Assembly (NCBI GenBank): GCA_964354685.1
Contig: CAYHAM010000002.1
Span: 71,058-135,057, forward strand
DNA: 64,000 nt
Source of the DNA: an uncultured Methanosarcinales archaeon
Lineage (GTDB): Archaea > Nanobdellota > Nanobdellia > Woesearchaeales > JAGVZT01
Direction: 5' to 3'
In this document: positions 1 to 59,650 of the stretch, piece by piece
Layout of the letters: each line of letters begins with the position of its first letter
Position numbering within the stretch: position 1 is the stretch's first letter
Made by a program: the position numbers and the translations under genes
The notes under the pieces: generated by a model
Seen by the model: only the letters and a program-made list of their open reading frames with translations
What the model was told of the DNA's origin: nothing
Databases searched by the model: none

Positions 1-1803
1 CTGTTTTTCTGAGTAAAGTTACTGAAATCTTCAAATGTTTCCTTAACTTTTTCTGGGATTTTAACATTTATATTAACAATTCTTGAATCATCCTTAATAA
101 CACTTCTCCCAAAAAGCTTTGCATCAACCCCAATCTCAGTTAAATAATCTAATGTCAGCAAAGTCGCCCTTTCAGCTCCTCCTACATAGTCACTCCTCAA
201 AACGCTTAATGGATAATTCAGCAAAGCTACTTTTAATTCTCTGTAAGGGGTCCATTCTTTGAATTCTTCATCAGAGTACTTGTTAGGATCAAAGGTTCTG
301 TTTTTTATGTCCTTGATTAGTTCTTCTGGCAGTCCTTTTATCTCAAAATTAAACTTTTTATTTTTGGATATGGTTTCGTTTAAACATTTACCAACTTCCC
401 TTAAACTTGGTGAATACTTATTATCCAAAAAAGTGTACTGTATATTCCTTATCCCAGGATAAAGCAAGAATTTAGTTATTTTATTAAGAAAAACCACGTT
501 TTGCTTAACAATCAAGACATTTGCTTTTATATTAACATTATATTTAAATAAATTTTTTATTCCCTTAACTGTCTGCTTAAAACTTCCTTCTCTCCTTGTC
601 AAGAAATCATGCAATAATTGATTATGTGACCATATCTTAACAATAAAAGATTTAACCCCTGCCTTAATTACTTTTTTTGTAAAATCTTTGTAACAAAATA
701 TTTTAGCATTTGTTTCTAAAGTAACATTTATTCCTAATATATTGGCATAATCTAATAATTCAAAGAAGTCTTCTCTTATTGCTGGCTCTCCTCCTGCAAA
801 AATTACTTTGTCAATAAATTTTTGTTTGCAATCTTCTAGTTCTTTCTTGATTTCTTCTGTAGTCTTTTCTTTTAAAATATCTTCATAAACTTCATAAAAA
901 GGATTGTCGTTTGAAAGAGTTCCTAAAAGTATCTGTTTACATGGTTTAAATATGTTCGGCATCCCCCAGTACTCTCTCCAACAATATTCTTTGATATTTT
1001 CAGAAGAGTGCTTTTTAGCTAATCTTTTTATATTCTCTAAGGTTTTTTCAAACTTATCTTTCTGAGGATCAAACATAGGACAAGGATGAGATTCCTTTCT
1101 ATCTAGGGAATAACCCAAAGCATTCCTATTCAACTTGAAACCTAACTTCTTTTTAAATAATCTATAACCTAAATCAATATCCTCATACCCCCACCCAATA
1201 AAGTTTTCATCAAACTTCTCTAAATCCTTTTTCAAAATAGAAACATTATTGGTGTAGAAAACTTCCCATGGGTTTCTGTACTTATGTAAATTATCATTAC
1301 ACTTATGATAAATCTTATCTCTGTACTCTGGTATTATTTCTAATTGTGTAATCTGATTTGGGTTATTATCAATAATCTTTTTAACTTCTTCATAATCATA
1401 GTTCTTATTCTGCAAAGTTCCAGTAATATGCCCACTCACATAACCAATACAAACAGCTTTCTTACTCCTTTTATGGACTTCTACATGCTCATTTATGAAA
1501 TCAGGAACAACAATAACATCACTATCTAGGAATATTATTAATTCTCCTTTAGCATGTTTTACCCCCAAATTCCTTGCCTGTCCTGCCCTAAACCCTTTCC
1601 TCTCCTGCCAATAATACCTCAACTCATAAGGCACTTCCTTAGTCATCTTCTTAACCATCTTATCAGTGCCATCATCTCCACCATCATCCACCACAATAAC
1701 CTCATACTTCTTGGGATCATAGCTCTGATATGCCAAGGATTTGAGAACTAACTCTAAGACCTCCTTTCTGTTATAGGTTGGTATAATAACGCTTACCCTC
1801 ATC
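1..1803 (-). CDS. Family-2 glycosyltransferase (N-terminal GT2 domain) fused to a C-terminal radical-SAM-like TIM-barrel region; 3' end of the gene runs off the window start
   Basis: Reverse-strand translation from ATG at 1803-1801 reads MRVSVIIPTYNRKEVLELVLKSLAYQSYDPKKYEVIVVDDGGDDGTDKMV... with a DxD motif (FLDSDV); continuous reading frame to position 1 by my reading; downstream part reads ...KVIFAGGEPAIREDFFELLDYANILGINVTLETNAK...GSFKQTVKGIKNL, typical of a rSAM core, but no canonical CxxxCxxC was seen (only C-x12-C). Open-ended, so absent from the ORF track. Confidence 0.6.
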
Positions 1804-2020
1804 TATCCCCTCAAGTATTAGAATGGCTTCAAATATATTTAAGATTTGTGTTTGGTTGTTGTGTTAGACTAATGCCATCTGCAAGTTTTTCAGCTTTTAT
1901 GAAAGTTTCCACAGGACATTGGACATATGCACATAAAATATATAAAAAGATTTTTGTAATAAAATCAGTACTAATGGGCATGCAATAAGCCAGCACTTCA
2001 ATTAATGAATGATATTATAT

Positions 2021-2100
2021 TACTACAAAAGTAGTACAAAAAACACTACAAAAATAGTAAAATTTATAAATAAATTAGTATTTTACACTACAAAAATGGT
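2021..2100 (+). promoter_or_regulatory. Three tandem operator-like palindromic repeats (ACTACAAAARTRGTA) upstream of the HEPN/NTase pair
   Basis: tactacaaaagtagtac / cactacaaaaatagtaaaa / cactacaaaaatggtaaaa seen directly; the first is a perfect inverted repeat tactac-aaaa-gtagta. Confidence 0.4.
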
Positions 2101-2614
2101 AAAATCACTCCAAGGCTATAGGGAACAAGGCACAGTAAGAGATCTAACCCCACAAGAAAAGGGTTATTACCAAACCTTTCTTGAAACAACTTATAAGGAT
2201 AATCTAAAAGCTTCAGATTTTCTCCTTGTGAAGTTTCCTAGATGGAGTATCATTTCTGGTTACTATACAATGCACGATATTTCCAAGCTTTATCTTGCAA
2301 AACAGTTTAACCTAAAGTTTTCTCAGCCAGAGGTACATGGAGCTGTGATTCAAGCCTTGAGAGAACTGGTAAAAAGAAAAGATATCTTAGAGTTAATAGA
2401 AGAGGCTAATGAAGAGTATGAAAATATAATCTCCTTGCATTTAAGTTTGAAACAAGGCAAAGAAGAGCGAGAGAAAACCCAATATTACACATCAGAAACA
2501 ATCAAAGCAGAGGTAAACCTACAAAAGGGCTCTTACTTCCTAGAAAGGCTGGTGAAACCCTACATCAAACTAGTAGAAAAACTAATGAAGCCTGAAAAAC
2601 AAAGTGGTTTTTGA
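2096..2614 (+). CDS. HEPN-like small protein, probable partner of the downstream nucleotidyltransferase. Start moved to the in-frame ATG at 2096 because the track start 2009 lies inside the operator repeats
   Basis: All-helical small protein (MVKSLQGYREQGTVRDL...RELVKRKDILELIEEANEEYENII) whose end overlaps the NTase gene by 11 nt; two-gene HEPN/MNT-type architecture; HEPN assignment inferred, not motif-proven. Confidence 0.4.
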   Translation: MVKSLQGYREQGTVRDLTPQEKGYYQTFLETTYKDNLKASDFLLVKFPRWSIISGYYTMHDISKLYLAKQFNLKFSQPEVHGAVIQALRELVKRKDILELIEEANEEYENIISLHLSLKQGKEEREKTQYYTSETIKAEVNLQKGSYFLERLVKPYIKLVEKLMKPEKQSGF

Positions 2615-3170
2615 GATGATAGCAAACGTATTAAACAACAAGAGTGTCTGGAAACTTTTGTTTCTTATCTCGTACTCACCTGGCTCTGGTTATACAAGGG
2701 GAGAATTACTAAAGTTAACAAAATGGAACAATCTTTCACTTGACAGGGTGCTAAAAAAATTGTTGTTTTACAATATAATCCAAAAAGAGGGGAGAATTAT
2801 AAAATTGAACTTTGAGGACATTAAAACAAAAGTTATAGTAAATCTAATAGAACAAGAAAAAAAAAGATTAAACTATCCCTCATACGAACTATATTTAATT
2901 ATCACTGAATTTTTGCGGTTAGTGGAAAATAAACCAATATTTGCGATTTATCTTTTTGGGAGCTGGGCAAAAAAAACAGCTTCAAAAAGTTCTGATATTG
3001 ATTTGGCAATCTTTTCTAAAGATGAGCTCAATTTAATAAAGGTTCAGGACAAAATAGAGCAGAGATTTGAAGTGAAGTTACAATTGCATTATTTCGAGGA
3101 AGATACACTCAAAAATAAAAGAGATCCTTTGATAAAAAACATTCTAAAAGATGGAATAAAAATAAAATAA
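2604..3170 (+). CDS. Minimal nucleotidyltransferase (MNT/Pol-beta superfamily) with N-terminal wHTH-like region
   Basis: LFGSWAKKTASKSSDIDLAIF is the GS-x9-13-DxD NTase motif; overlaps the upstream ORF. Confidence 0.7.
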   Translation: MVFEMIANVLNNKSVWKLLFLISYSPGSGYTRGELLKLTKWNNLSLDRVLKKLLFYNIIQKEGRIIKLNFEDIKTKVIVNLIEQEKKRLNYPSYELYLIITEFLRLVENKPIFAIYLFGSWAKKTASKSSDIDLAIFSKDELNLIKVQDKIEQRFEVKLQLHYFEEDTLKNKRDPLIKNILKDGIKIK

Positions 3171-3178
3171 GAGAAAGC

Positions 3179-3268
3179 TCAAGAACAGCTCTGATCACTC
3201 AAAGATTTCAGAACTAGTTCCAAAATCTCTTTTCTATTGTAAGTATGTATAATAACACTTACTCTCAT
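3179..3268 (-). pseudogene. Truncated duplicate of the 5' end (29 codons then stop) and promoter-proximal sequence of the GT2 gene at 1..1803
   Basis: Reverse translation MRVSVIIHTYNRKEILELVLKSLSDQSCS* parallels MRVSVIIPTYNRKEVLELVLKSLAYQSY of the GT2 gene; ~90 nt of DNA (gtataataacacttactctcatctatcccc...) aligns with 1760-1850 at ~75% identity. Confidence 0.6.
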
Positions 3269-3375
3269 CTATCCCCCCAGATATTACAATAATACCAATC
3301 CTTATATATTTTTATGTTTTATAACCTCTCCAAAATAGCAAAAATTATATATCCTCATATATATTATTTGAGTAT

Positions 3376-5406
3376 ATGAAGATACTCTTCTATGCCATAA
3401 ACGGGGTGGGTTTAGGCCATGTGAACAGAACCCTAGCAATAGCCAAAGAGATAAGAAAACTAAGCCCAAAAGCCCATATAATGTTTGTCACCAATTCTCA
3501 ATTTCCTGATTTAATTGAAAAAGCTAACTTCCCTTACATAAAGCTGCCAATCTTTGAAGGAGACCCTCTTACAAAGGATATGACAAGATACATACCTTAT
3601 TTAGTAAATGAAAAGCTGATAGAAGCAACCTTGTATGACTATGAGCCAGATGCTGTTGTTTATGACACCCATTTTCCATTTGGAACTGTTAAAAAAGCAA
3701 GTGAATTCAATGTTAAAAACATACTAATACTTAGAAAGCTGAAAAACAAGGTTCTTGATGATTACATAAAACAGTTTAAGCATTTTGATCTAATAGTCTT
3801 GGCCCACTCTGAACAAGAGTTTTTAGATATGAAAGTTTCAAAACAATTAATACAAAAGATAAAGAATAAAGGCATTGTGTTTGTTGGTCCAATCATAAGA
3901 AAACCAGAAAATATAGAACCAAATTACAACTTAAACAAATTTAACATCCTTGTAACAGCTGGTGGAGGAGGTTGGAATGATTCCAAGAAGTTTGTTGAAA
4001 TTTGTCTAAAAGTTTGCAAAAAAATTGTTAATAAAAACAAAAACATCAATTGCTACATCATAACAGGCCCTTTATACAGATGGAATATTAATCATATCAA
4101 AAATAACAACATTATAATCAAAAGCTTTGAACCCAAACTGATAGATCTAATGCAAAAATGTGATTTGGTTGTTTCTCAAGCAGGGTATAATGTATGCAAT
4201 GAAATCATGCTAACAAAAACACCAGCAATAATTATCTCAAGAAAAGACCCACTTGAAGACCAAAGAGAAAGGGCAAAATGGCTTTCAGAAAAAGGTGTTG
4301 CAATAACAATCAACACCTTAAATGAAAAAACATTAACAGAAGCTATTGAAAAGTTTTACCAAAATAAAGTTCTACAAACAAAGATGAAGAGAGCATTTTC
4401 TAATATTAAACTTGATATAGGTAATGAAAGATTATCAAAGATGATAATAAATTTGATACCAAAAAGAATAGAAAAACAGGTGAAGCTTTCAAGAAAAAAA
4501 CATAAACTCCTGGATTCAAAATATAGGCAAACCCAACAAATAGAAAAAAACCAAACAAATCTGTTGGAAGAAAAAGGCATACAGGAACAATGGGATACTC
4601 TACTAAAAAAAGAAACAAACCTTAGACAAAAACAAGGCGATATCTATTCCAAATTAGAACCATTATATAAAAAAATAAGAGAGTTAAAAAAACAAACACC
4701 ACAACAAGAATACATTAAACAACTCAATCCATTAGAAAAACAAAAACAACAACTCTTAAAACAAAACAAAAAACTAGAAGAACAAACTAAAAAACTAAAA
4801 GAACAAAACAAAACACTAAAAAACAAAGAGCCCTTTAAAACACTACTAGAACTACAAAAAGAACTCGATCAAAAATATGAAGAACTCTTTGAGCCATACA
4901 ACATCCAGATTGGAGAAGTAATACAGAAACAAGAGCTTGTTCTTGAGGGAAAATACACTGAAAAGACTTGGAATGCACTTGAAAAACAAAAACAAAGTTT
5001 GGAATCAGAAAAACACCAATTCTGGCAAAAAGAGTTAAAACCAATAGAAGACAAAGTTAACCTATCCAAAGCCAAAGTTAAAACATACACTAAAGAACAT
5101 GGCATCTTAGATATTAAAGAGATTGACAAAGATATTGAATCTCTATGGCAAGAAATCAACAAAAACAACAAAGAGCTACAACTTATAGACAACGACATAG
5201 AAAATCTCAACAAAGAAACTAATAAAATCCAAAAATTAGTTGACAAAAAATACAACAAACAACTCCTTCCTCTAGATTACAAGCTAGACAAAATACTCAA
5301 CGAAAAACAAGACTTCCTAAAAAAGCACAAACTATTTAAAGATTTCAAAAGACTGGACAAGGAAAGGGAAAGATTAAATAAAGAGATTTCAGAGCTGCAG
5401 GATTAA
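3376..5406 (+). CDS. UDP-glycosyltransferase (GT1/GT28 MurG/MGT-like N-terminal domain) fused to a ~300-aa K/E/Q-rich coiled-coil tail
   Basis: MKILFYAINGVGLGHVNRTLAIAKEI... (G-rich loop + GHVN), LVTAGGGGW, SQAGYNVCNEI; C-terminal half is low-complexity coiled coil (QKQQLLKQNKKLEEQTKKLKEQNK...). Stop at 5406, next ATG at 5408. Confidence 0.7.
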   Translation: MKILFYAINGVGLGHVNRTLAIAKEIRKLSPKAHIMFVTNSQFPDLIEKANFPYIKLPIFEGDPLTKDMTRYIPYLVNEKLIEATLYDYEPDAVVYDTHFPFGTVKKASEFNVKNILILRKLKNKVLDDYIKQFKHFDLIVLAHSEQEFLDMKVSKQLIQKIKNKGIVFVGPIIRKPENIEPNYNLNKFNILVTAGGGGWNDSKKFVEICLKVCKKIVNKNKNINCYIITGPLYRWNINHIKNNNIIIKSFEPKLIDLMQKCDLVVSQAGYNVCNEIMLTKTPAIIISRKDPLEDQRERAKWLSEKGVAITINTLNEKTLTEAIEKFYQNKVLQTKMKRAFSNIKLDIGNERLSKMIINLIPKRIEKQVKLSRKKHKLLDSKYRQTQQIEKNQTNLLEEKGIQEQWDTLLKKETNLRQKQGDIYSKLEPLYKKIRELKKQTPQQEYIKQLNPLEKQKQQLLKQNKKLEEQTKKLKEQNKTLKNKEPFKTLLELQKELDQKYEELFEPYNIQIGEVIQKQELVLEGKYTEKTWNALEKQKQSLESEKHQFWQKELKPIEDKVNLSKAKVKTYTKEHGILDIKEIDKDIESLWQEINKNNKELQLIDNDIENLNKETNKIQKLVDKKYNKQLLPLDYKLDKILNEKQDFLKKHKLFKDFKRLDKERERLNKEISELQD

Positions 5407-5407
5407 T

Positions 5408-6841
5408 ATGCGGAGGATAAAAGGGGTGGATAAAAACACCATTATAAAGTATTCTTTATTAGTACTAACCTTATTTTTAATACCTTTATTATCACTCTTT
5501 TTTATAGAGGGCACAACCCTTGCTTCAAAACTTGATTTCCTCTTTCAAATCCAAAAACCATTTTTAGTGTTGGGAGTTATGTTTGTGATATTGTTTTATC
5601 TAACAAAAGATAAAAAGATCATAAAAAAACCTAAGCTAAATTATTACTTTTTGATATCATCAATAATCCTTTTTCTCATATTGTCTGCACTTCAAATACC
5701 TTTTTTTGATGCCTTGCAATCTGGTTTAATACAAGTAACAGATCACGGGATAAAATATGACAAGGTTGGTTTTCTTGGTAATACTTTTTACAAAGGAGAA
5801 ACAACGCTAAATCAAAACATAAGTTTGATGAAAAGGATTTACTTAAACGAAATACCAGAAAGCCCTAAACTAAAATGGTATGGTTCATGGTTAGATGGCG
5901 ACAATGATGGTGTTTTTGGACGGGATTTTAAGATTTTTTTAAACATTAACAATCATGGGTATGATATAACTCAACAATTTTCTTCCCTTGACCAAGGAAG
6001 TACAGGATTGATGGAAACAACCATTGATCCACAAGACCTAAAAATAGGTGAGAACACATTGAGTTTTTGGATTCAATCCAACAAAAGCTTTGAAGCCATA
6101 ACATTGATAAAACATATTTACTATCATGAAAACTCTTTCATAACCTATGATAATGGAAAAACATGGCTGCAAGATGATGGAATGTTGCTAGCATTCCTTG
6201 AAAAAGATATCAAAATACATCCAATAAAGAGAATAATCTTCTCCTACAAACCTTTGTTTGTTCTAATATCCTCTATATTGTTATTCATAGGCTTTTTTGG
6301 TTTAAACTATTCAAAAGACTTGTTCAAAAAAGCAGATCTTGAGATATATGCTTCTGCTTTTGCAAGCATAGGTTTTTTCTATGGCACAGCTTTCATTAAA
6401 CAAAACTGGCGACCAATAGCAAACATTGTTGTAAGCCTAGTGTATGCACTTAGCTCTATATTTTTTAAAAATGTAATTGTTGATATAACCAATCCACACT
6501 GTCCATTCCTTGTTGTTAAAGATTTTTCATCAAGAATCTGTGAATCATCTTCTGGAGTTGAGTCAATAGGATATTTTACCTTGTTATTTTTCCTAATATT
6601 AATAACAAACTGGAAATCAATTGACAAGAAAAAAACATTGATCTTTTACTTCATTGGACTAGTAGGTAGTGTTATTGTAAACACCTTAAGGATATTCTCA
6701 ATAATAATGGTAGGAATCTACATAGATCCTGAGTTTGCCCAAGGAATATTCCATACAAATGTTGGTTGGATACTGTTTTTAATATACGCTGCTGCTTATT
6801 GGTTTTTATTATTACCTTACATTAAGAAAAAGAAAAAATGA
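5408..6841 (+). CDS. Archaeosortase/exosortase-family transpeptidase with a ~190-aa extracytoplasmic insertion after TM3
   Basis: Polytopic membrane protein; conserved exosortase motifs seen: Cys in C-x-SS-G-x-ES (RICESSSGVESIG), Asn/Arg in VNTLRIFS, C-terminal H..GW (FHTNVGWILFL); K-rich C-terminus. Confidence 0.7.
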   Translation: MRRIKGVDKNTIIKYSLLVLTLFLIPLLSLFFIEGTTLASKLDFLFQIQKPFLVLGVMFVILFYLTKDKKIIKKPKLNYYFLISSIILFLILSALQIPFFDALQSGLIQVTDHGIKYDKVGFLGNTFYKGETTLNQNISLMKRIYLNEIPESPKLKWYGSWLDGDNDGVFGRDFKIFLNINNHGYDITQQFSSLDQGSTGLMETTIDPQDLKIGENTLSFWIQSNKSFEAITLIKHIYYHENSFITYDNGKTWLQDDGMLLAFLEKDIKIHPIKRIIFSYKPLFVLISSILLFIGFFGLNYSKDLFKKADLEIYASAFASIGFFYGTAFIKQNWRPIANIVVSLVYALSSIFFKNVIVDITNPHCPFLVVKDFSSRICESSSGVESIGYFTLLFFLILITNWKSIDKKKTLIFYFIGLVGSVIVNTLRIFSIIMVGIYIDPEFAQGIFHTNVGWILFLIYAAAYWFLLLPYIKKKKK

Positions 6842-7431
6842 AAGCATACTTAATACCACTTTTAACATATATCCTAACCCCCTTAATATTAAATTTCTTT
6901 ATTAAAAATATTTATATCTCGTATTTTGTTGGTATTATTCTGACAGGAATTCTGCTTTTTTATTTCAGAAAACACTACAAAATAAAATTAAGAATAAAAC
7001 TCTTACCTTTTGTTATTGGAATTATCATTTTCCTTGTTTGGATATTTATCCCAAATATTTATCCTTTTTTCATTAGCACACAATTTGTTCCAACAAACAC
7101 TTCTTTTTTATTATTCAAATTGCTTGCAATGATAAGTGTTGTTCCCTTGACAGAAGAGCTCTTTACTCGTGGTTTCTTGATAAGATACTTTGCTACAAAA
7201 GATTGGAAAAAGGTTCAAATAGGCAAGTTTACCTGGCTTTCCTTTATTATTACAGTTCTGTTCTTTGGCTTTTCTCACAACAGGTGGTTATCAGGACTAA
7301 TTGTAGGAGTATTACTCAATCTTTTGTTATATAAAACAAAGAATTTGGGAGATTGTATTATTGCTCATAGCTTTGCAAACCTGTTGGTAGGAGTCTATGT
7401 TATATACACAAACTCTTGGTTTTTGTGGTGA
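6838..7431 (+). CDS. CPBP-family (CAAX/Abi, PF02517-type) intramembrane metalloprotease
   Basis: Motifs TEELFTRGF (EExxxR), FGFSHN (FxxxH) and IAHSFANL (second His) in a 6-TM protein; start overlaps archaeosortase stop by 4 nt. Confidence 0.8.
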   Translation: MKAYLIPLLTYILTPLILNFFIKNIYISYFVGIILTGILLFYFRKHYKIKLRIKLLPFVIGIIIFLVWIFIPNIYPFFISTQFVPTNTSFLLFKLLAMISVVPLTEELFTRGFLIRYFATKDWKKVQIGKFTWLSFIITVLFFGFSHNRWLSGLIVGVLLNLLLYKTKNLGDCIIAHSFANLLVGVYVIYTNSWFLW

Positions 7432-7488
7432 TTTATCACTCTAAAATCCTCAAAAACTAATTTAAACTACTTATATTTAAACAGTAAT

Positions 7489-8406
7489 ATGGGGGTTAGT
7501 ACAGAGCTAAAAGAGTGGGTTAACAAGGGATTAAAAAAAGGCTACTCAAAGGACAAGCTTAGACAGGAGCTTACAAAGGCAGGTTATTCTGATAAGGACA
7601 TAACTTCTGCTTTAAAGGAAACAGGATCTAGCCCAAAGCGTAATCCTCTAGTTATTGGTATTGTTTTGATTGCAGTTATTATTGGATCTATTTACTTGTT
7701 TAATGCATTGCAGACAAAGGTCATTGTTCTTGAGGCTGAAAAGGACTTTAATTTGGGAGAGTGGGTGAGGGTAGAGCCGGAAGGCGACTATGTTGTTATA
7801 AACAACGAGACTGAAATTTGGAGTAGACCTTTCAACCTAAAAAAACTTTCCAATTTTCGCGAAGCACAAAAAATAAATGTCAGGGTTATTGCCAAAGGCG
7901 GTGAGGGGGAGGAGGAAAACCTGATTCTCATTTTAGAGGTTGTTAATCAGAGCCATTATGGAAATTTTGAGAACTCAACAATTTATCCTTCAATAGTCAC
8001 TGTCATTTCAGACGTAAGCGGCAATAAGACAATAGAGACCCGCTTCTCTGGCAAATATTTGAACGGAGTGATGAATGACAAATTGGTTCAGAAAAAAGGC
8101 ACTTTTGATACGTCCAACGCAGTCTTTATGAATAGCAGATTCCAAGATATGGTTATCGAGGGCAACAAAACAATCTTTTATTACAGAAAGGATAAATGGC
8201 CTGTGCTTTCTGTTGTCTTTGGAGAGGACCTCAACAACTGGAAGTTGCTGGAGATATCCTCAACAGAGTGGCAAAGTTTTCTGATTCAGTTTGACATGAA
8301 TAGGTTTTCAGACTTTGAAAATGCGGAATTAATATTCGAGTTAAGCACAGACACTTTAAACCCTATACCTACATACATTGATAAAGTTTATGTCACTTTA
8401 GAATAA
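7489..8406 (+). CDS. N-terminally anchored membrane/surface protein, paralog A (short cytoplasmic N-domain, one TM, ~230-aa external domain)
   Basis: MGVSTELKEWVNKGLKKGYSKDKLRQELTKAGYSDKDITSALKETGSSPKRNPLVIGIVLIAVIIGSIYLF...; first ~80 codons nearly identical at DNA level to 8756.. paralog. Confidence 0.6.
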   Translation: MGVSTELKEWVNKGLKKGYSKDKLRQELTKAGYSDKDITSALKETGSSPKRNPLVIGIVLIAVIIGSIYLFNALQTKVIVLEAEKDFNLGEWVRVEPEGDYVVINNETEIWSRPFNLKKLSNFREAQKINVRVIAKGGEGEEENLILILEVVNQSHYGNFENSTIYPSIVTVISDVSGNKTIETRFSGKYLNGVMNDKLVQKKGTFDTSNAVFMNSRFQDMVIEGNKTIFYYRKDKWPVLSVVFGEDLNNWKLLEISSTEWQSFLIQFDMNRFSDFENAELIFELSTDTLNPIPTYIDKVYVTLE

Positions 8407-8420
8407 ATTTCAAGTAAATA

Positions 8421-8648
8421 CTATCTCAATTTTTTCTTTATTATTATAGACAAACAGATGACGGCTAAAAGTGCTAAGACAGACGTGGCACCAGAAAATT
8501 CTGGTACGCAGTTACAACTCGCGTCGCAAACTTTTGTACCTGGGCAACCGCCGTCACACCCATTGCCTGCAAAACACGCCCCGAAAGCAACCGAAGAACT
8601 AAGTAGGATGAGAACAAACATGGTTAAAACCAAGGCACCTCTTTTCAT
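8421..8648 (-). CDS. Tiny secreted Cys-rich protein with PEF-CTERM-like sorting signal (putative archaeosortase substrate)
   Basis: MKRGALVLTMFVLILLSSSVAFGA (signal peptide) + CFAGNGCDGGCPGTKVCDASCNC (7 Cys in 23 aa) + VPEFSG + ATSVLALLAVICLSIII (TM) + KKKLR. Confidence 0.7.
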   Translation of the reverse strand: MKRGALVLTMFVLILLSSSVAFGACFAGNGCDGGCPGTKVCDASCNCVPEFSGATSVLALLAVICLSIIIKKKLR

Positions 8649-8755
8649 CTTAACAATTCTTTATAGATTTCTAATATATAAAGTTTTTGTTTTTCTGTTT
8701 TATTATTCACAAATAGTCAAAAACTAATTTAAACTACTTATATTTAAGCAGTAAT

Positions 8756-9685
8756 ATGGGGGTTAGCAAAGAGCTAAAAGAGTGGGTTAACAAGGGATTA
8801 AAAAAAGGTTACTCAAAGGACAAGCTTAGGCAGGAGCTTACAAAGGTAGGTTATTCTGATAAGGACATAACTTCTGCTTTAAAGGAAACAGGATCTAGCC
8901 CAAAGCGTAATCCTCTAGTTATTGGTATTGTTTTGATTGCAGTTATTATTGGATCTATTTACTTGTTTAATGCATTGCAGACAAAGGGAATTGTGCTAGA
9001 GGCAGAGAAAGATTTTAAGTCTGGTGACTTTGGTGTGGAGTTCGAGCCCTTTACTGATTACATCAGACTCAGCAGTAATGGCTATATCACAACCGAATCT
9101 CTGAATCTTAAGGAACTTAAAAACTTTGAAAAAGCAGACAAGATCAATGTTGAATTTATTGCCAGAGGAGAAACAGGCAAGGCAGAAAACATAGTCTACA
9201 CATACGAGCTTCTTGATGGTGAGACATTTGACAATTTGGAGGATTCAATGAATTACTCAACCAGGATAACTTTGCTCTGTGATATAACTTGTGACAAGAC
9301 TCTTGAGAAAAGCCTGAGCGGACAATGGCTGAACAGAGTCATGAATGAGAGACTTAACCAGGAAGAAGACACATTTGACCAGGGTGAAATCTTTGTTTCA
9401 CACGCCAAGTTCAAGGACATAACTGTTGAAGGGAACAAAATGGTTATACGATATGAGAGGAGTATCTGGCCTGTTGTTTATGTATCAACCTGGTCCACAG
9501 AATGCTTCTCCTGCAAAAAGCCTGCTGCGGTGGAAATATCTTCACAGGAATGGGAAACCTACACTGTACAGTTTGATTTGGCTGACCCGAAATCAGATTA
9601 TTCCTACCTGGGTATAGAATTGTCAACTGATGAAGAAAACCCAAAGCCGGTCTACATAGACCAAGTAATTGTCAGCTTAAAATAA
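8756..9685 (+). CDS. N-terminally anchored membrane/surface protein, paralog B
   Basis: Same N-terminal 80 aa as paralog A; diverged C-terminal domain with 4 Cys (CDITCDKT...STECFSCKKP). Confidence 0.6.
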   Translation: MGVSKELKEWVNKGLKKGYSKDKLRQELTKVGYSDKDITSALKETGSSPKRNPLVIGIVLIAVIIGSIYLFNALQTKGIVLEAEKDFKSGDFGVEFEPFTDYIRLSSNGYITTESLNLKELKNFEKADKINVEFIARGETGKAENIVYTYELLDGETFDNLEDSMNYSTRITLLCDITCDKTLEKSLSGQWLNRVMNERLNQEEDTFDQGEIFVSHAKFKDITVEGNKMVIRYERSIWPVVYVSTWSTECFSCKKPAAVEISSQEWETYTVQFDLADPKSDYSYLGIELSTDEENPKPVYIDQVIVSLK

Positions 9686-9688
9686 GCC

Positions 9689-9931
9689 TTACCTTAATCT
9701 TTTCTTTATTATCACAGCCAAGACAAAAACACACAGCATGGCTAGGATAGCAGTCACGCTTGAGAATTCAGGAACACACCCACAAGGAGGACCATCACAC
9801 GTCTGAGTGGGAGGAACGCATCCACCGTTACAGCCTCCATATCCGTCATTAACGCACGCACCAAAAACATTTGACGCACTTAACAATAAAACAGTTACAA
9901 GAATTATTAAAACCAAAGCACCTCTTTTCAT
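9689..9931 (-). CDS. Tiny secreted Cys-rich protein with PEF-CTERM-like sorting signal, paralog 2
   Basis: MKRGALVLIILVTVLLLSASNVFGA + CVNDGYGGCNGGCVPPTQTCDGPPCGC + VPEFSS + VTAILAMLCVFVLAVII + KKRLR. Confidence 0.7.
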   Translation of the reverse strand: MKRGALVLIILVTVLLLSASNVFGACVNDGYGGCNGGCVPPTQTCDGPPCGCVPEFSSVTAILAMLCVFVLAVIIKKRLR

Positions 9932-10017
9932 CTTAATGCCTCTTTAAAAGCTTTTATATATAAATCTTTTGAATTTTCAAGCAATATTTAAATATGTAAC
10001 TCCAATATTAAAAAAAT

Positions 10018-14382: not shown

Positions 14383-14650
14383 TAAACACTCGCGAGGTTG
14401 CTACAAATTATTAAAATTTTATTACTAAAAATAACCTTCGCGGGGTTGCTTGTTATAACCTCATTATACGCAACCCCGTGGTGATAGGGTTCCTATCCTC
14501 TTCAGGAAGCAAGGAACCTCAGATAAGTACACGCTTGATATGTCAGAATACCAGAGGTATTCTGAGCATGATCAAAAACAATCTTTGTTGTTTTTGACAT
14601 AAGCAAGAGATATATCACTCGTGAATTATTTTAAAATTAAAAAGAAGATT
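14383..14650 (+). repeat. Copy 1 of a conserved structured intergenic element (hairpin gcggggttgc/gcaaccccgt + 50-nt conserved core + ACTCGTGAATT tail)
   Basis: Core gttcctat..ctcttcaggaagcaaggaacctcagataagtacacgcttgatatg is ~90% identical to 23607-23660; 3' end atcactcgtgaattattttaaaatt matches 23727-23750. Confidence 0.6.
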
Positions 14651-23562: not shown

Positions 23563-23750
23563 TAGCGAGTTGCCAGTGCTTAACCGCAAGAAAGGCAACT
23601 CGTTGTGTTTTTGTTCCTATATTCTCAAGGAAACAAGGAACCTCAGATAATTACACGCTTGATAGAGGCATGTGGAAAATCACTCGCTAAAGAATTTTAA
23701 TTTTAAATAATTATTATGCAACTCGTGAATTGTTTCAAATTTTTTAAAAA
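23563..23750 (+). repeat. Copy 2 of the conserved structured intergenic element (hairpin cgagttgcc/ggcaactcg + conserved core + ACTCGTGAATT tail)
   Basis: ttcctatattctcaaggaaacaaggaacctcagataattacacgcttgataga and gcaactcgtgaattgtttcaaat match copy 1. Confidence 0.6.
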
Positions 23751-23802: not shown

Positions 23803-23875
23803 AGCCCCGTGGTCTAGTGGTCAAGGATAACCGGCTCTGGACCGGTTGGCGGCAGTTCGAATCTGCCCGGGGCTA
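23803..23875 (+). tRNA. tRNA-Gln (anticodon CUG)
   Basis: Acceptor AGCCCCG/CGGGGCU, D-arm GUCU..GGAU, anticodon stem ACCGG/CCGGU with loop CUCUGGA, T-arm GGCAG-UUCGAAU-CUGCC, discriminator A; no encoded CCA. Confidence 0.8.
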
Positions 23876-59293: not shown

Positions 59294-59562
59294 ATTTTTT
59301 AAGAGAAAGGAGTTTTAGCCTCCTTTTTTCAAAAGCATAGCTAATTTTGTGTTTTATTTCTAAATTCTAATTATCTATTCTCCTTTTTCTTATAGAGAAA
59401 CTCTTTTTCTTTCTTTTCTTTGGAGGAGAGCATCTCTAATTACTAGTTAAAGAGTATTTTAATTATATAAATCTTTCTATTTTCTATAAAGAATCCATTA
59501 AATAGCCTTCTTTTGCTTAAAATAAGCCTATAATAACCTTTTTGTCAAAGAAAAAGTAGCAC

Positions 59563-59650
59563 CACGAGTTGCCTTTTATGTGATTGAACACTGGCAACTC
59601 GCTAATTATTATTTTAATAATTTTATATATGTTATAGCAACTCGCGAGTA
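59563..59650 (+). repeat. Copy 3 (short form) of the hairpin element family (cgagttgcc-N19-ggcaactcg, then gcaactcgcgag)
   Basis: Same hairpin arms as copy 2 at 23568-23611; lacks the 50-nt core. Confidence 0.5.

Follow-up and report, generated by a model that had tools for sequence, protein, structure and literature searches.

Minimal nucleotidyltransferases (MNTs) are paired with HEPN proteins in type VII toxin–antitoxin (TA) modules of the HepT/MntA kind, among them Shewanella SO_3166/3165, Aphanizomenon HEPN-MNT and Legionella HEPN-MNT (PDB 8xeh), and also in PDC-M05 (nucleotidyltransferase M05A plus HEPN), a candidate defence system of the PADLOC catalogue that is enriched in archaea and whose antiviral role is unconfirmed (PMC12988326). 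On the HEPN side, proteins of the AF0298-like HEPN-T type keep the Arg of the active-site motif but have lost its His, and a second conserved His, contributed by the connection that joins helix 2 to helix 3, has been proposed to form an alternative active site (Anantharaman et al. 2013, PMC3710099). At the level of whole loci, homology-facilitated illegitimate recombination has been proposed for displacement arrays, namely the Vibrio cholerae type VI secretion system (T6SS) effector-immunity and Rhs orphan arrays (PMC5361080). Here we analyse a 64,000-nt stretch of DNA, called the window throughout, from an archaeon deposited as an uncultured Methanosarcinales archaeon and placed by GTDB in the Woesearchaeales (GCA_964354685.1, contig CAYHAM010000002.1, positions 71,058 to 135,057 of the forward strand). 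Near its start, a two-gene HEPN and nucleotidyltransferase (NTase) cassette lies between the beginning of an intact GT2 glycosyltransferase gene and a second, truncated copy of that beginning. With moderate confidence, we read this locus as a TA-type cassette accompanied by the recombination scar of a displaced GT2 gene, not as a module flanked by a duplication made at its insertion.

The two copies form a direct repeat of 104 nt, 1721-1824 (copy 1) against 3187-3290 (copy 2), with 78% identity and an offset of 1466. It is the only long direct repeat reported in the first 8 kb and, by self-BLAST, the second strongest in the 64-kb window (E 1.8e-16), whilst tblastn with the GT2 N-terminus recovers the second copy over 27 aa at 85% identity (E 8e-8). 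An earlier note, made from the sequence alone, had described a recurrence of the GT2 start beyond the cassette; it is real, slightly longer and more identical than claimed, and pairwise alignment with MAFFT agrees with the result of the repeat search. Translation likewise returns the truncated minus-strand open reading frame (ORF) that the note described, at 3179-3268, and the gene pair between the copies is present at 2096-2614 and 2616-3170. Homology spans GT2 positions from about -22 to codon 29, and possibly reaches back to about -45, taking in a TATA-like box, if a 5-nt indel is allowed; the homologous ~22 nt 5' of the ATG contain GGGGATAG.

The pattern of divergence between the copies carries the argument. 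Over codons 1-23 they differ 2, 1 and 12 times at codon positions 1, 2 and 3 respectively (P = 2.9e-4), the proportion of synonymous differences (pS) being saturated at 0.83 and that of nonsynonymous differences (pN) standing at 0.046, with P8H and V15I as the only changes to the protein. Had the target been duplicated at insertion, a non-coding copy would be expected to differ evenly over the codon positions, which is not observed; the third-position bias argues instead that, while they diverged, each copy was still part of a functional GT2 gene of its own, and that copy 2 was truncated later. Judged by its codons, copy 2 is what is left of the promoter-proximal end of another GT2 gene, diverged and once functional. 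The nearest available genome, that of Candidatus Woesearchaeota archaeon RBG_13_36_6 (GCA_001791825.1; hereafter the sister strain, locus L001), has ~93% identity to the window across the stretch spanning the cassette and the same gene arrangement. Because it carries both copies and the same junction, the event must be older than the split of the strains. In the sister strain copy 2 has suffered a 26-nt deletion within it and ~20% substitutions, a pattern which indicates neutral decay since that split. A recombination scar of the displacement type should be a decaying fragment of a once-functional homologue, and copy 2 is such a fragment. The features of the locus are as follows.

1..1802, minus strand: intact GT2 glycosyltransferase–radical SAM fusion gene (from translation), running off the window start with 600 codons visible
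1721..1824, minus strand: repeat copy 1, made up of a 22-nt 5' leader and GT2 codons 1-27 (repeat search; self-BLAST E 1.8e-16)
1825..2020, no strand: unique spacer from the GT2 start to the cassette (other cassette loci are conserved only from O1 on)
1831-1840, minus strand: TATA-like AAATATATTT, putative promoter element of GT2, read from sequence
2021..2036, plus strand: operator-like palindrome O1, TACTACAAAAGTAGTA, a perfect TACTA-N6-TAGTA (sequence, and comparison with other loci)
2044..2059, plus strand: operator-like palindrome O2, CACTACAAAAATAGTA, which adjoins the TATA box at the position of the B recognition element (BRE) (sequence, comparison)
2063..2072, plus strand: predicted archaeal TATA box TTTATAAATA, centred ~28 nt 5' of the ATG (sequence)
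2086..2101, plus strand: operator-like O3, CACTACAAAAATGGTA, over the expected transcription start and the ATG at 2096-2098 (repeat search, comparison)
2096..2614, plus strand: ORF A, 172 aa, HEPN fold of the AF0298-like (HEPN-T) type, putative toxin
2616..3170, plus strand: ORF B, 184 aa, winged helix-turn-helix (wHTH) plus minimal nucleotidyltransferase, putative antitoxin/autorepressor
3179..3268, minus strand: truncated ORF MRVSVIIHTYNRKEILELVLKSLSDQSCS*, 29 codons plus TGA, 5' remnant of a second GT2 (translation, codon comparison)
3187..3290, minus strand: repeat copy 2, the remnant with its conserved 22-nt leader (alignment, repeat search, self-BLAST)
3300-3313, minus strand: TATA-like AAAAATATATAAGG of the remnant, a putative promoter read from sequence
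3376..5406, plus strand: GT28-family glycosyltransferase gene with a long coiled-coil tail (Pfam Glyco_tran_28_C, 9e-14)

Of the two origins offered by the earlier note, insertion with duplication of flanking sequence is contradicted by the concentration of differences at synonymous third positions. Capture between two GT2 paralog remnants comes closer to the evidence: copy 2 is a remnant, whilst copy 1 is not, as it starts the intact GT2–radical SAM gene. Duplication in situ, through a long target-site duplication (TSD) or replication slippage with the copies diverging afterwards, would account for direct repeats around a compact mobile module, which do resemble a TSD; the uneven codon-position counts speak against it, as does the lack of terminal inverted repeats and of a transposase, and we regard it as highly improbable. 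A version in which copy 2 is translated and under selection runs against the 26-nt deletion in the sister strain. To our knowledge, 104 nt far exceeds the TSD length of known transposons. A transposon or insertion sequence with TSD was considered separately and rejected on the codon pattern, the absence of bracketing inverted repeats and the absence of a transposase-like ORF in 1-12 kb. The codon-position test thus offers a simple way to tell an insertion-made duplication from a recombination scar.

The locus bears further marks of recombination. A tract at 1804-2881 (L001:823-1900) is 99.0% identical between the window and the sister strain, with 11 mismatches in 1078 nt, as against ~87% in its flanks. 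Sharp borders delimit it, one at the start codon of GT2, the other where the wHTH domain gives way to the NTase domain; within them lie the region upstream of GT2, the operators, the HEPN gene and that half of the NTase gene which encodes the wHTH. The tract has the look of a recent exchange by homologous recombination in which promoter, HEPN and wHTH moved as one unit. In addition, both window copies (1790-1798, 3254-3260) use AGC/AGT for Ser4 of the GT2 start and both sister-strain copies use TCA; Val3 co-varies too. This pattern suggests that the repeat copies underwent gene conversion once the strains had separated. By these sequence signs, the locus is recombinationally active.

We posit the following course of events. 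A resident second GT2, either the allele of another lineage or an old paralog, would once have faced the GT28 gene, which is divergent from the remnant in the window and in the sister strain alike and is probably the remnant's original neighbour. Recombination would then have installed or rearranged the unit formed by cassette, spacer and present GT2, cutting the older GT2 at codon 29/30. On the GT2 side the crossover would most likely have relied on homology, and the joint beside the NTase stop would have been illegitimate, a case of homology-facilitated illegitimate recombination, after which the remnant would have been left to decay neutrally. We infer the exact recombination route, as we do the toxicity, AMPylation and repression discussed below. 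As in T6SS, Rhs and contact-dependent inhibition (CDI) arrays, a conserved anchor gene lies by variable cassettes, pieces of displaced genes lie between them and the locus is mosaic (PMC5361080). Unlike in those arrays, the scars here come from the 5' end of a gene (its promoter and first 13-30 codons) instead of being 3' ends or immunity genes, the hosts are DPANN archaea, the fragments are rather uniform at ~100 nt, and the mechanism is one that we propose by analogy. We know of no arrays of gene 5' ends in DPANN archaea, although no literature search was aimed at such a pattern.

A parallel arrangement is found on a different Woesearchaeal contig recovered from several samples (L002, ENA ERZ28563803 scaffold_13751; also L003-L005). 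Here the first 13-30 codons of a PD-(D/E)XK nuclease gene (8112; MNTFSHSRLSCFEQCPLKFKYAYIDKV) recur upstream three times, with more degenerate copies beyond.

7034: fragment of ~40 nt
5846: fragment with ~45 nt of clear homology and a 6-nt deletion, perhaps ~90 nt in degenerate form
4413: fragment of 27 homologous codons within a 30-codon ORF
~3840 and ~3290: more degenerate copies

Across L002:3290-8230, at least four small cassettes are thus stacked, each preceded by a ~40-100-nt diverged copy of the PD-(D/E)XK gene start: a 150-aa protein, a 121-aa protein with Fic, a HEPN/NTase pair as in the window, and an NTase/HEPN pair. The best-preserved copy, at 4413, has 9 codons changed relative to the real gene, 6 by synonymous changes. 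Most of the fragments measure ~100 nt and share a terminal AAGATTGCGAGGTTGTGAAGA(A)ATG motif just before the start codon of the next cassette. Gene-start remnants of ~100 nt between cassettes at two unrelated loci hint at a shuffling of accessory modules in DPANN archaea, which have tiny genomes and few recognisable mobile-element enzymes. A TA island at L008 (MNT/HEPN, PIN/RHH and others) also contains recurring sequence between cassettes, a promoter-like element at 745-836, 7077-7141, 7875-7995 and 8767-8805 that stands ~65-75 nt before several cassettes (TTCCGGAAA...TTGCGGAAAAAA...GCATATAAAG); these repeats are not gene fragments, and so are of a different kind.

The L002 array bears on two rival histories of the repeat. 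In the first, which is of the Campbell type, a cassette circle or circle-like fragment would carry a ~100-nt handle from the 5' end of its last neighbour's gene; a single crossover between this handle and the start of the resident gene would insert the cassette with the handle on both sides, and excision, through recombination between the two copies, would be possible. Such a cassette system would resemble an integron but do without an integrase. In favour of this history, the arrangement found is exactly that of repeat, cassette and repeat, and the target gene has stayed intact; a handle taken from an orthologous gene would lead one to expect the synonymous-biased divergence just as much; and the signs of gene conversion between the copies fit as well. 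On L002, one gene start recurs as a copy of ~100 nt (close to the ~109 nt here) before each of at least four cassettes, and the distal ends of these copies are similar, although one of the fragments is only ~40 nt. As it stands now, however, a repeat of 78% identity with a longest perfect run of ~14 nt is a poor substrate for homologous recombination, neither integrase nor transposase occurs in the stretch inspected (1-12.4 kb), and no attC-like hairpin is present (z-scores of single-stranded DNA folds from -2.2 to +1.3). We consider this history possible but unlikely, and give no greater credence to the wider idea that DPANN (Woesearchaeota) possess an integrase-free cassette system in which TA or defence modules carry ~100-nt handles of host-gene 5' ends. 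If that idea were true, the host recombination machinery would insert, stack and excise modules at a gene start, yielding integron-like arrays as on L002 and single insertions as at the GT2 locus.

An integron with attC sites proper was rejected: the repeat folds as single-stranded DNA with z from -2.2 to +1.3, it has no conserved hairpin, and the neighbourhood lacks an integrase. Small promoter-proximal cassettes in one orientation with a ~100-nt repeated element between them, as on L002, do recall integron cassettes. Unlike in integrons, no IntI-type integrase is seen, the repeats derive from a protein-coding gene instead of attC sites, and the window cassette has its own promoter.

In the second rival history, two tandem GT2 paralogs are ancestral, and the GT28-proximal one lost everything past codon 29 when the cassette landed in it or when a deletion joined it to the cassette. 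A pS of 0.83 fits old paralogs as well as xenologs, and this part of the window does hold tandem gene duplications (7404-7751 versus 8674-9018). Against this, tblastn with the GT2 N-terminus found no further GT2 of the same type in the 64 kb, and L002 would need at least four paralogs each cut down to its first 13-30 codons, which is unparsimonious. We judge this history to be rather less likely than the handle-borne insertion.

Several observations weigh against the displaced-GT2 reading that we prefer. No genome was found in which the site is empty or in which a GT2 of the copy-2 type is present at full length, leaving the polarity of donor and recipient, and the route, unproven: the empty-site search of genome contigs with GT2–radical SAM returned only one irrelevant Sulfurimonas locus, and that of metagenome contigs with GT28 only a contig matching at the position equivalent to the sister strain (92% identity); GT28 homologues are at most 38% identical. 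Furthermore, since the L002 fragments end alike at ~100 nt, close to the ~109 nt here, a handle fits them at least as well as random illegitimate joints do. Finally, gene-start fragments flank the cassette in only two of its ~9 contexts and no flanking repeats were found around it in the other seven, an absence that counts against the Campbell-type insertion too. The earlier note had asked whether relatives might carry the duplicated fragment without the cassette; this is not the case in the sister strain, the only close relative available, which carries both.

The cassette (~2021-3170) is itself most likely a mobile MNT-HEPN module of the type VII HepT/MntA kind, here in Woesearchaeota (DPANN), and by most tests it belongs with the MNT-HEPN (type VII / PDC-M05) modules. 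As in type VII modules, the HEPN and MNT genes are kept as a pair: they are adjacent and co-oriented in every locus examined, in ~9 otherwise unrelated contexts that include a Fic / PD-(D/E)XK-UvrD island, a PIN/RHH plus MNT-HEPN island and sugar-nucleotide genes, as well as protein kinases, S-layer genes and RelA/SpoT. This range of contexts bears out the mobility suggested by the earlier note. Conserved DNA runs from O1 to a few bases off the NTase stop, from which we take the unit to be ~1.15 kb (~2021-3170). Comparison with the sister strain shows both cassette genes under purifying selection (ratio of nonsynonymous to synonymous substitution rates, dN/dS, of 0.05 and 0.16). The two genes had been said to overlap, which they do not do here, the TGA of the first ending at 2614 and the ATG of the second beginning at 2616; several homologous copies of the pair do overlap by a few bases (e.g. 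4 nt, ATGA, on L002).

ORF A belongs to a family of ~165-aa proteins that comprises 59 clusters at 90% identity and, among 1.8 billion representatives, 121 clusters at 50% identity; those of the 59 that bear a source name are annotated as Woesearchaeota, Nanoarchaeota or Nanoarchaeia. Homologues support the MVK start at 2096. Fold prediction and profile searches were needed because direct scans of ORF A against Pfam (E<=1), NCBIfam and PADLOC gave no useful match. An AlphaFold model built on the homologue alignment is confident (pLDDT 87.6, pTM 0.82) and has the four-helix up-down HEPN fold. Three of 39 homologues match Pfam HEPN (PF05168) or related models weakly (best E 0.061), and the family profile reaches four sequences (P0228, P0232, P0233 and P0236) at E 1e-4 to 9e-4 which themselves score above the PF05168 cutoff, at 22.5-35.3 bits. 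The best PDB match of the profile is the HEPN protein 9xbd, a weak hit (E 0.044) that aligns the YYAM...H...R-x4-Y motifs. The HEPN signal on which the earlier note had staked its reading of 2096..2614 was therefore found.

The invariant residues of the family are R49, S51, I53, Y56, Y57, M59, H60, K64, H81, R125, Q129 and Y130. The canonical Rx4-6H motif is absent, R125 being followed by EKTQ and then Y130-Y131, whilst H81, invariant like R125, lies between model helices 48-71 and 80-92. ORF A thus combines a retained motif Arg, a lost His and an alternative His, as AF0298-like HEPN-T proteins do, and on its sequence and model it is a HEPN-fold protein of that branch. It shares only 13% identity with AF0298-like HEPN-T (UPF0332; PDB 2hsb), exceeds it in length by ~45 residues, has an extension at the N-terminus and a loop (126-141) that is poorly predicted, and gets no direct Pfam HEPN match; its family is small. 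By this analogy, ORF A would most likely act as an RNase toxin through an alternative active site of Arg125 and His81. The conserved Y130/Y131 directly follow R125, a placement next to the motif that is at most suggestive of AMPylation of an ORF A Tyr by the MNT.

ORF B carries an N-terminal wHTH at ~aa 9-64 fused to a minimal nucleotidyltransferase. Residues 103-183 match Pfam Polbeta and NTP_transf_2, both above cutoff. The motif is G115-S116-x10-D127-x-D129, its spacing being x10 and not the x11 of the earlier note; this falls within GS-x(9-11)-DxD, and all of 28 sequences keep G115, S116, D127 and D129. In L006 the NTase at first looked truncated, which would have spoken against toxicity, but this was traced to a difference in gene calling: the DNA does not differ from that of L007, and the ORF is intact. 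ORF B also matches PADLOC PDC-M05A over residues 2-168, most of its length (E 2.6e-9), so that the make-up of NTase plus HEPN is shared with PDC-M05, unlike the identity of the partner: ORF A matches no PADLOC model and so lies outside the catalogued M05 partner. By analogy with these systems, ORF B would most likely neutralise ORF A by nucleotidylylation or by complex formation.

In characterised HepT/MntA operons (SO_3165/3166), the antitoxin MNT gene lies upstream of the HEPN gene. In the window and in all homologous loci the order is HEPN then NTase, the reverse, and this is one of several features that tell against a TA module of the canonical kind. The cassette lacks Rx4-6H, with no His found 4-6 residues after R125 in any of the 39 homologues, so that RNase activity of ORF A is not assured. 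It also falls short of the NCBIfam MntA_antitoxin cutoff, ORF B scoring 43 bits where 60 are required and matching only the model's N-terminal half, and to these must be added the failure of the direct scans with ORF A. Unlike the HEPN proteins of type VII modules, ORF A has R-x4-Y-Y plus the alternative invariant His81 in place of Rx4-6H, and unlike their NTases, ORF B has an extra N-terminal winged helix with matching operators.

The missing His leaves room for another role, in which the pair is not a TA module at all: ORF A would be a non-catalytic, substrate-binding or regulatory HEPN partner of the kind seen in kanamycin-NTase-like enzymes, the target modified by the module would be a small molecule or nucleic acid, and the wHTH would be an ordinary regulator. 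Antibiotic nucleotidylation has indeed been raised as an alternative for MNT-HEPN pairs (Makarova 2009, PMC2701414). The invariant polar residues R49, H60, K64, H81, R125 and Y130 point, however, to a catalytic or modification site rather than a scaffold, the nearest relatives of the NTase are MntA antitoxins, and the distribution is patchy and mobile, within islands that hold Fic, PIN/RHH and other MNT-HEPN pairs. We consider a role of this kind unlikely. Read as a TA-type module, the cassette extends the MNT-HEPN (type VII / PDC-M05) repertoire by a HEPN subfamily that is invisible to Pfam, counts ~120 clusters at 50% identity and is known so far mainly from Woesearchaeota and Nanoarchaeota.

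The three palindromes noted before the gene pair are real. O1 is the sole perfect TACTA-N6-TAGTA in the 64 kb, and O3 overlaps the ATG at 2096. The position of O2 is conserved in all TACTA-type loci examined, O2 and O3 are spaced 42 bp apart in the window and 41-42 bp in every TACTA-type locus, and O1, where recognisable, sits 23 bp upstream of O2. L002, L006, L008, L012 and L016 each have an O1 equivalent equally far from the ATG; in the operator comparison, no O1 was recognisable in L013 and L017/18. The geometry of O2, TATA box and O3 recurs in L002, L006, L008, L012, L013, L016 and L017 within unrelated surrounding DNA, and a TATA element, (A)AATATTTAAATA or TTTATAAATA, stands at the same position in these seven loci and in L019. 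The last of these belongs to a distant subfamily of the cassette (51% identity; L019:4890-5000) and has TTCTG-N6-CAGAA at the position of O2, its half-sites duplicated along with the TATA box and TACTA-N6-TAGTA sites absent. Since the L019 operator differs at the same position, the operator co-varies with the wHTH protein.

With its TATA box ~28 nt before the ATG, the mRNA is expected to be leaderless or near-leaderless. We propose that a dimer of ORF B would bind the three TACTA-N6-TAGTA operators via its wHTH and, once bound, would repress the leaderless bicistronic operon by blocking access to the BRE/TATA region and to the start of transcription and translation. The regulatory design of the module, a wHTH-fused antitoxin with three operators over BRE/TATA and a leaderless start, is clear and testable.

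Both glycosyltransferase genes beside the cassette have unusual architectures, a GT2–radical SAM/SPASM-like fusion (1-1802) and a GT28 with a coiled-coil tail (3376-5406). The product of 1..1802, whose N-terminus begins MRVSVIIPTYNRKEVLELVLKSL (minus strand, copy 1), matches NCBIfam GT2 families over aa 1-130 (EpsD, 3e-42) and radical SAM/SPASM families over aa 290-460, and its dN/dS against the sister strain is 0.10. The Lys/Glu-rich coiled-coil tail of the GT28 protein, ~320 aa, is only 53-78% identical to the sister strain, unlike its catalytic part (>90%). Next to it, in the gene of a 477-aa multi-pass membrane protein (5408-6841), ~500 nt at 6100-6600 have no counterpart in the sister strain; no gene is called in the corresponding stretch there, and the gene may have been deleted or disrupted in that strain.

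Further along, 7404-9971 is a tandem duplication of a two-gene unit, in which 7404-7751 is ~91% identical to 8674-9018. The genes at 7489-8406 and 8756-9685 encode a nearly identical N-terminal 77 aa (a helix and a transmembrane segment) and then diverge, each being followed by a small Cys-rich minus-strand ORF with a signal or transmembrane segment (8421-8648 and 9689-9931). A repeat of ~70-85 nt with a hairpin core, GCGAGTTGCC...GGCAACTCG, occurs in three copies, at 14456-14540, 23581-23664 and, in reverse, 59560-59627. It has no Rfam match at the gathering threshold, and one copy lies ~140 nt upstream of the tRNA at 23803.

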